Source: Escherichia coli (lineage in GTDB: Bacteria > Pseudomonadota > Gammaproteobacteria > Enterobacterales > Enterobacteriaceae). Taken from it: a stretch of 27,896 nucleotides of DNA. Positions 7,115 through 10,066 of the stretch are shown one piece after another; position 1 is the first letter of the stretch; every line of letters begins with the position of its first letter. The translations under genes were made by a program, and so were the position numbers. Location of the stretch: the NCBI RefSeq assembly GCF_003334255.1, contig NZ_QOWU01000061.1, one strand, 5' to 3'. The notes below the pieces were generated by a model. It worked only from the letters and a program-made list of their open reading frames with translations, was not told the DNA's origin and ran no database searches.

Positions 7115-8240
7115 ACTGCGGATATTCCTGCAATAAATTGTGTAATGCTTCCGCCATCAGCTCACCACGCCAGCCGGAAATCAGCTCCGGCAAATTGTTC
7201 TGCGGTTTCAGTTTCCAGTGCCAGTTCAGCAGTTGGTTGATTTGCCGACGCGATGCCAGCAATTCGGCGCTGATCTTATGCGTTTCGCTCACGTCAGTAA
7301 TCAGCGACTTAATCGCTTTAAACGCTTTACGATAACCCGGCATGTCCATCAGGTTAAGCATCGGCTGCGGTAAGGCATCTTCCGGCAATGTCTGCGCTTT
7401 TTCCACCAGCGCTAGCAGCGTTTTACCGTGAAAGCGGATTTCGCTACCGGATAAACCCAGGCTGTCCAGTTCGCCTAAACTTCCCGGCATATAACGCGCT
7501 ACCGACCACAAATGCTCTTCACGCACGACAAAGTTCACCGCCAGATCGCGCTCTCGCGCCTTGCGCAGTCGCCAGTCGGCTAACAGTTGCAGACAGGCCA
7601 GTTGGCGTGTGCGTAATTGCCAGGCATTGGTGATATCACGCCAGGCATCTTCCGGCGCAACGACTTCCTGACGACGCATTTGCATCAGGCGGCATTCATC
7701 CAGCGCCGCAGGTAGCCAGCCGGAGGCCTCCGTTTCTACCATAAGCTTGGCGGTGATCGGTAACAGATACCAGACATCCGCCGCTGCGTATTCACACTGA
7801 CGTTCGGTCAGCGGTCTGGCCAGCCAGTCGGTGCGCGATTCACTCTTGTCCAGCGTAACGCCGGAATACTCTTCCACCATGGAAGCGAAACCCCATGACA
7901 TCGGGCGTCCGCAGAAGGCAGCAAGGATTTGCGTGTCAATCAAGGGTTGTGGTAATTCGCCAAAGACATTGAGGAACACTTCCAGATCTTCACTGCCTGC
8001 ATGGAGAAATTTTGTGATGGACGGATCGCGCAGGATCGCTTTCAGCGGTGACCAGTCGGTGATCCCGAGTGGATCGATTAGCGCCAGATGCTCGCCATCG
8101 AAAAGTTGAATCAACCCCAGCTGCGGGTAATAAGTGCGCGTACGAACAAATTCAGTATCCAGGGCTATCGCCGGAAAGGCACGGACGGCTTCACACAAAG
8201 AAGCCAGCGCATCGTCCGTGGTAATCATTTGGTAATTCAA
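7113..8240 (-). CDS. rnd: Ribonuclease D, 3'-5' exoribonuclease for tRNA processing (375 aa)
   Basis: ORF 375 aa MNYQMITTDDALASLCEAV..., DEDD exonuclease family; start codon is TTG (complement of CAA at 8238-8240), consistent with the known UUG start of rnd. Confidence 0.9.
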   Translation of the reverse strand: MNYQMITTDDALASLCEAVRAFPAIALDTEFVRTRTYYPQLGLIQLFDGEHLALIDPLGITDWSPLKAILRDPSITKFLHAGSEDLEVFLNVFGELPQPLIDTQILAAFCGRPMSWGFASMVEEYSGVTLDKSESRTDWLARPLTERQCEYAAADVWYLLPITAKLMVETEASGWLPAALDECRLMQMRRQEVVAPEDAWRDITNAWQLRTRQLACLQLLADWRLRKARERDLAVNFVVREEHLWSVARYMPGSLGELDSLGLSGSEIRFHGKTLLALVEKAQTLPEDALPQPMLNLMDMPGYRKAFKAIKSLITDVSETHKISAELLASRRQINQLLNWHWKLKPQNNLPELISGWRGELMAEALHNLLQEYPQ

Positions 8241-8263
8241 ATTGTTTTCTCTTTAGTGGGCGT

Positions 8264-8290
8264 CAAAAAAAACGCCGGATTAACCGGCGT
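8264..8290 (-). terminator. Hairpin plus U8 tract: fadD terminator and rnd 5'-leader translation-enhancing stem-loop
   Basis: On the minus strand ACGCCGGUUAAUCCGGCGU is followed by eight U; it lies between the fadD stop (8310) and the rnd start (8240). Confidence 0.75.
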
Positions 8291-8309
8291 CTGACGACTG
8301 ACTTAACGC

Positions 8310-9995
8310 TCAGGCTTTATTGTCCACTTTGCCGCGCGCTTCGTCACGTAATTCTCGTCGCAAAATTTTTCCGACGTTAGATTTCGGTAACTCATCACGA
8401 AACTCCACCAGCTTCGGTACTTTGTATCCCGTGAGCTGACGGCGGCAAAAAGTCACCAGTGACTCTTCGGTAAGCGATGGATCTTTTTTCACTACGAAGA
8501 TTTTCACCGCTTCACCACTGGAGCCGGAAGGTACGCCAACAGCCGCGACTTCCTGTACGCCAGGATGCTGCATGACGACATCTTCAATCTCGTTGGGATA
8601 GACGTTAAAACCGGAAACCAGAATCATGTCTTTTTTACGATCGACAATGCGCAGGAATCCTTCTTCATCCATTACCGCGATGTCGCCGGTGTGTAACCAG
8701 CCATTTTTGATGATTTCATCGGTAGCATCGGGACGCTGCCAGTAACCCAGCATCACCTGCGGTCCTTTGACACAAAGCTCACCCGGTTGACCTGGTGGTA
8801 CTTCATTATCATCATCATCCACCAGTTTGGCTTCCGTCGACGGCACCGGCAAACCGATGCTACCACTATGATAATCAATATCATATGGGTTAACGCTGAC
8901 CAGCGGCGCACACTCGGTAAGGCCATAGCCTTCCAGCAGATACTGTCCGGTCAGTTTCACCCAACGCTCTGCCACCACTTGCTGCACTGGCATCCCACCG
9001 CCTGCGGAAAGATGCAGACTGGAGAAATCCAGCTGCTGGAACTCTTTATTGTTCAGCAACGCATTGAACAAGGTGTTAACGCCCGTGATAGCGGTAAACG
9101 GATATTTCGCTAACTCTTTTACCAACCCTGGAATATCGCGCGGGTTAGTGATAAGCAGGTTCTGCCCACCCAGTTCGATAAACAGCAGGCAGTTAATGGT
9201 CAGGGCAAAAATGTGATACAGCGGCAGCGCCGTCACCACCAGCTCTTTGCCCGGATGCAACAGCGGACCATAGGTCGCGTTAACCTGTTCCAGGTTCGCC
9301 AGCATATTGCGGTGAGTCAGCATCGCGCCTTTCGCCACACCAGTGGTGCCGCCGGTGTATTGCAGAAAAGCTAAATCTTCCGGCACCAGTTCGGGTTTGA
9401 CGTACTGCATCCGGTAGCCGTTATGCAGTGCGCTACGAAATGAAATGGCATCTGGCAGATGGTATTTCGGCACCAAACGCTTGATGTATTTAACAACGAA
9501 ATTGACTACCGTGCCTTTTGCCGTAGATAGCTGATCGCCCATACGGGTCAGAATTACGTGCTGAACGGCGGTTTTATCAACCACTTTTTCCAGTGTGTGA
9601 GCAAAGTTAGACACGATAACAATCGCCGATGCGCCGCTATCGTTAAGCTGATGCTCAAGCTCACGCGGGGTATACAACGGGTTAACGTTTACGACGATCA
9701 TCCCGGCACGCAAAATGCCAAACAGCGCCACCGGATATTGCAATAAATTAGGCATCATCAACGCAACGCGATCGCCTTTCTTCAGCCCCAACCCTTGTTG
9801 CAAATAAGCGGCAAACGCGCGACTGCGTTCTTCCAGCTTGCGGAAGGTCATTACCTCCCCCATATTCACAAACGCAGGTTGATCGGCGTAGCGCGCGACC
9901 GACTGCTCAAACATATCTACCAGAGATTGATAACGGTCAGGGTTGATCTCCGTCGGAACGTCCGCGGGATAACGGTTAAGCCAAACCTTCTTCAA
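8310..9995 (-). CDS. fadD: Long-chain-fatty-acid--CoA ligase (acyl-CoA synthetase), 561 aa
   Basis: Adenylate-forming enzyme motifs ([17 protein letters not shown]-loop-like; GYGLTE); in-frame TTG at 9995 preceded by a GAGGTGA Shine-Dalgarno gives the 561-aa product [10 protein letters not shown]...; the track ORF 8310..10061 is an upstream over-extension. Confidence 0.85.
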
Positions 9996-10066
9996 TTCTT
10001 CACCTCTAAAATGCGTGTTCGTCGTCATCGCAACCCCAAATGATATACATGCCGTTAACATAATAT

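Follow-up and report, generated by a model that had tools for sequence, protein, structure and literature searches.

A hairpin and U8 tract between fadD and rnd of Escherichia coli as fadD terminator and rnd leader element

The fadD-rnd locus and sequences compared

The window, that is the whole stretch of 27,896 nucleotides analysed here (contig NZ_QOWU01000061.1 of E. coli assembly GCF_003334255.1), carries fadD and rnd one behind the other on the minus strand, separated by a spacer of 69 nt. Around this site the sequence is that of E. coli K-12, with 0 differences from MG1655 in 4501 nt, and window coordinates are converted to those of NC_000913.3 by adding 1879751. The upstream open reading frame (ORF) was identified as FadD by its family model (1171 bits) and ends with a TGA stop codon at 8310..8312 (-), as given by both the ORF list and the MG1655 annotation. 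The downstream ORF encodes a product of 375 aa that matches the NCBIfam RNase D equivalog with 751 bits; the alignment runs from residue 1, which places the UUG start codon of rnd at 8238..8240 (-), in agreement with the MG1655 annotation. A weak Shine-Dalgarno sequence, AAGAG, is located at 8249..8253 (-) as part of an AAGAGA block that is near-invariant in 68 distinct leaders, and was predicted by RNA folding to be mostly unpaired. Read on the minus strand, the spacer is GCGUUAAGUCAGUCGUCAG-ACGCCGG-UUAAU-CCGGCGU-UUUUUUU-GACGCCCACUAAAGAGAAAACAAU.

The comparison covered 80 rnd loci of Enterobacteriaceae, representing about 25 genera. In all loci with enough upstream sequence, fadD was found upstream of rnd.

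According to the MG1655 annotation, fadD is also TTG-initiated, at window position 9995 (-). The mechanical ORF list stretches the gene to an ATG at 10061, but residue 23 of this longer ORF is the first to align with the FadD model. UUG is therefore the start codon of both neighbours. Further upstream, the spacer between yeaY and fadD contains an 11-bp hairpin, AGAAACAGCGG-CTGGT-CCGCTGTTTCT (10153-10179), which scores as a terminator on the plus strand. Within it, CTGGTCCG resembles a FadR operator half-site, and a second such motif, AGCTGGTATGATGAGTT, lies at approximately 10083-10067.

Three more elements were recorded at the other end of the window. An Mn2+ (yybP-ykoY) riboswitch upstream of mntP, at 25710-25806 (+), scored 41.6 bits and is omitted from a default scan because this is just under the Rfam gathering score of 45. 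A match of 129.8 bits to the cspA thermoregulator family of Rfam was obtained at 27400-27850 (-), where it spans the yobF-cspC transcript and not cspA itself. Finally, a long palindromic element at 25505-25585, just after yobD, gave weak matches to microRNA-precursor hairpin families on both strands and is probably a repetitive palindromic element or a terminator.

Anatomy and stability of the hairpin

The spacer contains a G+C-rich hairpin at 8270..8292 (-), made up of a core stem, a loop and two weaker, optional closing pairs. In the core, ACGCCGG (8290-8284) pairs with CCGGCGU (8278-8272) in seven perfect pairs, six of which are G-C, around a 5-nt loop, UUAAU (8283-8279); following the terminator scan, G8291-U8271 and A8292-U8270 can lengthen the stem to nine pairs. 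The U8 tract at 8265..8272 (-), terminator tail and U-rich translational enhancer of rnd, corresponds to the eight T after CCGGCG, the first of which closes the stem. An earlier note, made from the letters of the stretch alone, had described this stem and eight U with a four-nucleotide loop, UUAA. Stem and U tract were found as described there, and the loop was corrected to UUAAU.

The hairpin starts 17-19 nt past the fadD stop codon, in keeping with the approximately 20 nt first estimated. Counted upstream from the rnd UUG, the U-run occupies 25-32 nt and the hairpin 32-50 nt, which reproduces the interval of about 25-50 nt initially given for the element. Between the U-run and AAGAG there are 11 nt, and 24 nt separate the U-run from the UUG.

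The calculated energy of the hairpin was -12.4 kcal/mol alone and -14.4 kcal/mol with the extension. In nascent RNA its predicted probability was at least 0.97, whether transcription was taken to start at the rnd start site or within fadD. A loose terminator scan was uninformative by itself (1 site vs 0.8 expected in 800 nt). Using a strict definition (seven perfect pairs, at least five G-C pairs, a loop of 3-8 nt and at least 7 T in 8), 4 distinct sites were obtained in the 27.9-kb window, against 0 for 100 dinucleotide shuffles, by which a chance hairpin was ruled out. A G+C-rich stem of at least five pairs, a short loop and a U tract directly after it, as present here, are the marks of an intrinsic (Rho-independent) terminator. 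A bidirectional terminator was rejected, as no converging transcription unit exists at the site, fadD and rnd both being on the minus strand.

The fadD transcript end and SroD

Term-seq located 3' ends on the minus strand at MG1655 positions 1888017, 1888018 and 1888020 (Adams et al. 2021, PMC7815308). These correspond to window positions 8266, 8267 and 8269, all within the U-run and one for each of three growth conditions, and are RNA ends as they occur in vivo, from termination or trimming alike. They were classified as the primary 3' end of fadD/sroD, a second table of the same study lists the same ends 27-29 nt upstream of the rnd ORF, and the main text is silent on the fadD/rnd site (Adams et al. 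2021, PMC7815308).

The small RNA SroD, a 3'-terminal fragment of the fadD mRNA (Rfam RF00370), was mapped to 8266..8351 (-). The match scored 115.2 bits against a gathering score of 50, extends over the full length of the model (1-86 of 86) and covers the last 14 fadD codons and part of the spacer, with the hairpin and U tail as the 3' module of the model. That the hairpin is the terminator of fadD, as had been proposed, is thus supported twice, by Term-seq 3' ends in the U-run and by the RF00370 3' end at the same place, and the published ends at 8266-8269 bear on the Term-seq check suggested at the time. SroD as a product of this element is absent from the earlier note.

Among the dRNA-seq entries retrieved for the region, no start site was present at the SroD 5' end (8351), and this end is therefore probably made by processing. 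The fadD codons CGA GAA at 8352-8357 (-), directly before the SroD 5' end, are synonymously frozen in 78 sequences. Lying outside the -35 and -10 elements described below, they might determine a processing site (GAA|UUA) or contribute to the promoter as an upstream element. One other Term-seq 3' end was observed inside the rnd ORF, at window position 8132 (-), approximately 108 nt past the start and in one condition; the flanking sequence printed in the table shows no terminator-like structure there.

The element might be conserved mainly for SroD, as the stability and Hfq-binding module of a trans-acting sRNA derived from a 3' UTR, in which case its presence in the rnd leader would be incidental. 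Such a role would fit the finding of the sroD family, at gathering score, beside fadD in 11 of the 12 other genera or species tested, the conserved 5' domain in the Rfam consensus and the stable fold of the RNA (-30.8 kcal/mol, z = -2.8). Literature searches, however, gave no SroD target or phenotype, and in one study sroD was irrelevant to the phenotype examined. Moreover, much of SroD is fadD coding sequence and rnd promoter, and its conservation can be ascribed to this overlap. Together with the behaviour of the U-run at split loci and its conserved spacing to the rnd start, both given below, these points make an element kept mainly for SroD unlikely.

The rnd promoter inside fadD

Zhang and Deutscher reportedly described in 1989 a single rnd promoter, a UUG start and a hairpin between the promoter and the Shine-Dalgarno sequence. 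To convert published start sites, the shift from U00096.2 to U00096.3 at the rnd start was assumed to be +1976. The value was checked on the neighbouring start site 1888008, which is thereby placed at window position 10233, 6 nt past a perfect extended -10 element, TGgTATAAT (10247-10239). This neighbouring site (1888008 in U00096.2; minus strand) lies inside the 3' end of yeaY, approximately 238 nt upstream of the fadD start; a transcript begun there would cross the yeaY-fadD spacer as a long leader.

For rnd, dRNA-seq gave the transcription start site (TSS) 'RVS_(II)-1886089' on the minus strand (1886088-1886089 in U00096.2), which overlaps a RegulonDB promoter (Romero et al. 2014, Table S2). 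After shifting, the TSS is positioned at 8313..8314 (-). C8314 and C8313 are the last two bases of the final sense codon of fadD, approximately 22 nt upstream of the hairpin and 5-6 nt downstream of a -10-like hexamer, GACAAT, at 8319..8324 (-). This hexamer encodes Asp-Asn in fadD and agrees with TATAAT at 4/6 positions, including A2 and T6. At a spacing of 17 nt, it is preceded by a -35-like hexamer, GTGACG, at 8342..8347 (-), within the fadD codons Arg-Asp-Glu and with 4/6 matches to TTGACA. The built-in promoter scan of 7900-8700 reported no promoter, because its threshold is 9/12 and the rnd promoter matches 8/12. The text part of the Cappable-seq supplement (PMC4782308) contains no entry near the site.

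The rnd promoter was consequently placed from the TSS and from conservation at synonymous sites, for which the last 80 codons of fadD were compared in 78 Enterobacteriaceae sequences. Synonymously invariant were only CGA GAA (codons -15 and -14), CGT GAC GAA (-12 to -10), AAA (-6), GAC (-4) and AAT (-3), the last of these in 78/78 sequences. The CGT GAC GAA block coincides with the -35 element and the AAA. GAC AAT block with the -10 element. The rnd promoter is thus built into the last 13 codons of fadD, as shown by dRNA-seq and backed by the frozen synonymous sites.

A TSS at 8313/8314 puts the promoter within the last part of fadD and gives rnd a leader of approximately 74 nt, so that rnd transcripts must pass the hairpin. 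The two corresponding predictions, a promoter within or at the end of fadD and read-through of a terminator-like structure by rnd transcripts, are in agreement with this start; the comparison of TSS and hairpin positions that had been put forward as a check could be made on the published dRNA-seq start, which leaves the hairpin inside the rnd mRNA.

The genes could also form an operon in which rnd, as second gene, owes most of its expression to fadD-promoter transcripts that read through, with a minor part for the internal promoter. Their common strand, the short spacer of 69 nt and their adjacency in every locus with enough upstream sequence are compatible with such an arrangement. Nevertheless, the start at 8313/8314 is a primary TSS in LB-grown cells, no fadD promoter start was present among the dRNA-seq entries retrieved for the region, synonymous sites in the -35 and -10 elements are frozen and a single rnd promoter was reportedly mapped by Zhang and Deutscher in 1989. 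Expression of rnd mainly from the fadD promoter is accordingly regarded as highly improbable.

Read-through into rnd

Read-through of the hairpin must occur from the internal promoter, because the stretch from the U-run to the UUG, 24 nt, is too short for another promoter. The leader hairpin might then be a regulated attenuator, at which read-through into rnd is tuned by an sRNA, by Hfq or some other protein, or by the ribosome as it completes fadD 18 nt upstream, making RNase D conditional. In favour of this reading, the terminator is located in a 5' UTR, and Adams et al. include it in a class of 3' ends upstream of ORFs that they connect with premature termination. On the other hand, no antiterminator fold was predicted, and the hairpin forms with the high probability given above from either start. 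Only 22 nt of leader precede it, and these form just a small separate hairpin; RNAalifold returned no other conserved upstream helix; and induction of fadD offers a simpler account of the transient appearance of SroD. An attenuator is for these reasons considered very unlikely. Its variant with an alternative fold, i.e. a riboswitch or classical attenuator, was rejected, as neither a mutually exclusive antiterminator nor a match to an Rfam cis-regulatory family was found. From the stability of the hairpin and the lack of a competing structure we infer that the site would act as a constitutive, leaky terminator rather than a switch.

The U-run and rnd translation

Zhang and Deutscher are said to have assigned the translational effect in the rnd leader, in 1992, to the U-run rather than the stem. 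They are also reported to have found the tract necessary for 30S binding and for translation of rnd, its removal lowering RNase D synthesis while the mRNA was not reduced. The U8 tract lies upstream of the rnd Shine-Dalgarno sequence and, with the TSS further upstream, within the mRNA, which is the placement of a translational enhancer. In later papers that cite this work, U-rich regions bind 30S subunits in vitro and enhance translation of rnd mRNA in vivo (Zhang and Deutscher 1992, cited in PMC5934652, PMC7769764). Both the title of the 1992 paper and the passages citing it attribute the effect to the U-rich run and not to the stem. The expectation that both a stem-loop and a U-rich run are needed for efficient rnd translation is therefore upheld by these passages for the U-run and not for the stem.

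Conservation of the element

All 80 loci have retained the hairpin together with a U-rich run, AAGAG and a start codon other than ATG, and the distances from the U-run to AAGAG and on to the start are conserved. Of 73 distinct upstream sequences, 69 start rnd with TTG, 4 with GTG and none with ATG. RNAalifold on the 68 distinct leaders returned exactly the core stem, in which compensatory substitutions were seen, C-G to U-A in two Cedecea sequences and G-C to A-U in six Kluyvera sequences. In the covariance-model alignment, 99.3% of stem cells were paired, compared to 31-53% with the partners slid.

Escherichia, Citrobacter and Kluyvera have a U-run of T8, most other genera one of T6AT. According to one citing paper, shorter U stretches give no enhancement, and the enhancer role may therefore be weaker or different outside these three genera.

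Two Citrobacter amalonaticus-like genomes (L010 and L021) carry an insertion of approximately 160 nt between fadD and rnd, with the hairpin sequence duplicated. In both, the copy proximal to fadD has lost its U-run and the U8 copy adjoins rnd at the normal distance from the start codon. That the U8 copy stayed with rnd fits selection on a function at the rnd side. This copy also remains the first canonical terminator after fadD. For an element kept mainly for SroD, the U-run would be expected to stay with fadD; where the insertion splits the locus it stays with rnd, and its spacing to AAGAG and the start codon is conserved.

Insertions between fadD and the rnd hairpin were seen in some Citrobacter and Klebsiella, at 1289-1469 in L010 and also in L021, L009 and L057. 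In L010, the insert has a copy of the 20-nt hairpin at either end and contains a GAGGTGATC...GATCACCTC inverted repeat and a palindrome, AAAATCAATnnATTGATTTT, that is found again in L057. It has the look of a miniature mobile element with the terminator as its target.

A lower helix in read-through RNA

In the centroid fold of read-through RNA, a second, lower helix is formed by a 5' strand CGUC at 8293..8296 (-) and a 3' strand GACG at 8261..8264 (-), directly after the U-run. The 3' strand is present only in read-through (rnd) transcripts, where CGUC and GACG are paired with a probability of 0.45-0.6. The Rfam consensus for SroD gives CGUC another partner, GCG (8337-8335), further upstream in the fadD ORF.

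An equivalent helix of 4-5 bp was found in approximately 50 of the 68 distinct leaders, as CGCC/GGCG, CGCCC/GGGCG, UGCC/GGCA and others. Cognate flanks outpaired permuted flanks (0 of 5000 permutations) and shuffled flanks (0 of 1000 shuffles), a comparison that rests on closely related sequences. In the covariance-model alignment, all three pairs of the main segment were changed on both sides; 27 sequences are left gapped at one lower-helix pair, so that the counts are conservative. The variable middle pair is C-G in most genera, U-G in E. albertii and some Citrobacter and U-A in E. coli. Several compensations thus seem to be independent of each other: the change from C-G by way of U-G to U-A in the Escherichia line, CGUUC/GGACG in strain RIT714, and an A-U pair of the lower helix restored in L017 and L038.

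The lower helix is missing from the RNAalifold result on the MAFFT alignment, a consequence of linkers that vary in length from genus to genus. Members of the Citrobacter freundii group have it in weak form or lack it, and in E. coli there is a competing helix, GCGUUAAG/UUUUGACGC. Taken together, the covariation gives modest support to the lower helix, which is the only new detail of this analysis. A tentative reading, for which we hold out limited expectation, is that of a two-tier fold that would show the U-run as a 5-7-nt internal loop between the helices and would have been selected as a landing pad for the ribosome or S1, or as a stabiliser of the rnd mRNA 5' end, with the shared sequence folding differently in SroD.

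Proposed mechanism

A single intrinsic terminator very probably serves a pair of transcription units with a head-to-tail overlap. The suggestion that one structure acts both as fadD terminator and as rnd leader element draws support from Term-seq, RF00370, dRNA-seq and the papers citing the work on the U-run. In the mechanism proposed here, fadD transcripts end in the U-run, as Term-seq shows, and their last 86 nt accumulate as SroD, presumably following processing. The promoter within fadD fires at C8314/C8313, 22 nt before the hairpin. Polymerases coming from this rnd promoter would meet the same fully formed hairpin, for which no competing antiterminator fold was predicted. A fraction of rnd transcription would stop after approximately 46-49 nt, yielding a predicted aborted leader RNA, and the remainder would read through to give rnd mRNA with its leader of approximately 74 nt.

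In the read-through mRNA, by the account published for rnd itself, the U-run offers the 30S subunit single-stranded, U-rich sequence to land on, 11 nt before AAGAG, with landing probably mediated by protein S1. It thereby offsets the poor initiation signals, i.e. the weak AAGAG and the UUG. As a net result, RNase D would be kept low and mostly constitutive by a leaky terminator combined with a weak, enhancer-assisted start.

Every part of this arrangement is already documented: the leader hairpin and U8 (1988-1992), SroD (2003, Rfam), the TSS (RegulonDB, dRNA-seq) and the 3' ends (Term-seq). Their synthesis into a dual-use element is implicit in existing resources, as the site has entries in the Term-seq tables both as fadD/sroD 3' end and as an end upstream of rnd, and no paper treating the fadD terminator and the rnd leader together was found in literature searches. 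As the element is already present in literature and databases, it opens no new question. It does illustrate the economy of a compact genome, in which a promoter is placed in the last codons of a gene and one hairpin with its U-run ends a transcript, caps an sRNA and aids the next gene. For annotation, it is a caution that a terminator between genes on the same strand need not end a regulatory unit; for design, that the U tract of a terminator near a ribosome-binding site can raise translation.

Comparison with known systems

The element is the rnd leader hairpin and U8 already reported (Zhang and Deutscher 1989, PMID 2681190; 1992, PMID 1372983): same sequence, same organism and no difference. 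By definition, SroD (RF00370; Vogel et al. 2003) derives from the 3' end of fadD, and the family description omits the role in the rnd leader. For terminators located in the 5' UTR of a next gene (Adams et al. 2021, PMC7815308), the fadD/rnd site is itself a listed case, entered for fadD/sroD and for rnd.

Dual use of one U tract, as in rnd, is also known from a synthetic transcriptional riboswitch (Wachsmuth et al. 2013, PMC3575828). There, a terminator U8 placed directly before the ribosome-binding site raised reporter activity from 31 to 100 units, and this approximately three-fold effect fell at greater distance (PMC3575828). That construct is engineered and its hairpin is controlled by a ligand, whereas no ligand or alternative fold is evident for the rnd leader.

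Similarly, in A/U-rich, S1-dependent enhancers and standby sites, such as the enhancer derived from rrnB boxA and the fepB leader, a single-stranded tract lies upstream of a weak Shine-Dalgarno sequence or a non-AUG start, as it does in rnd. Unlike those enhancers, the rnd tract is the tail of a working terminator and may be an internal loop between two helices.
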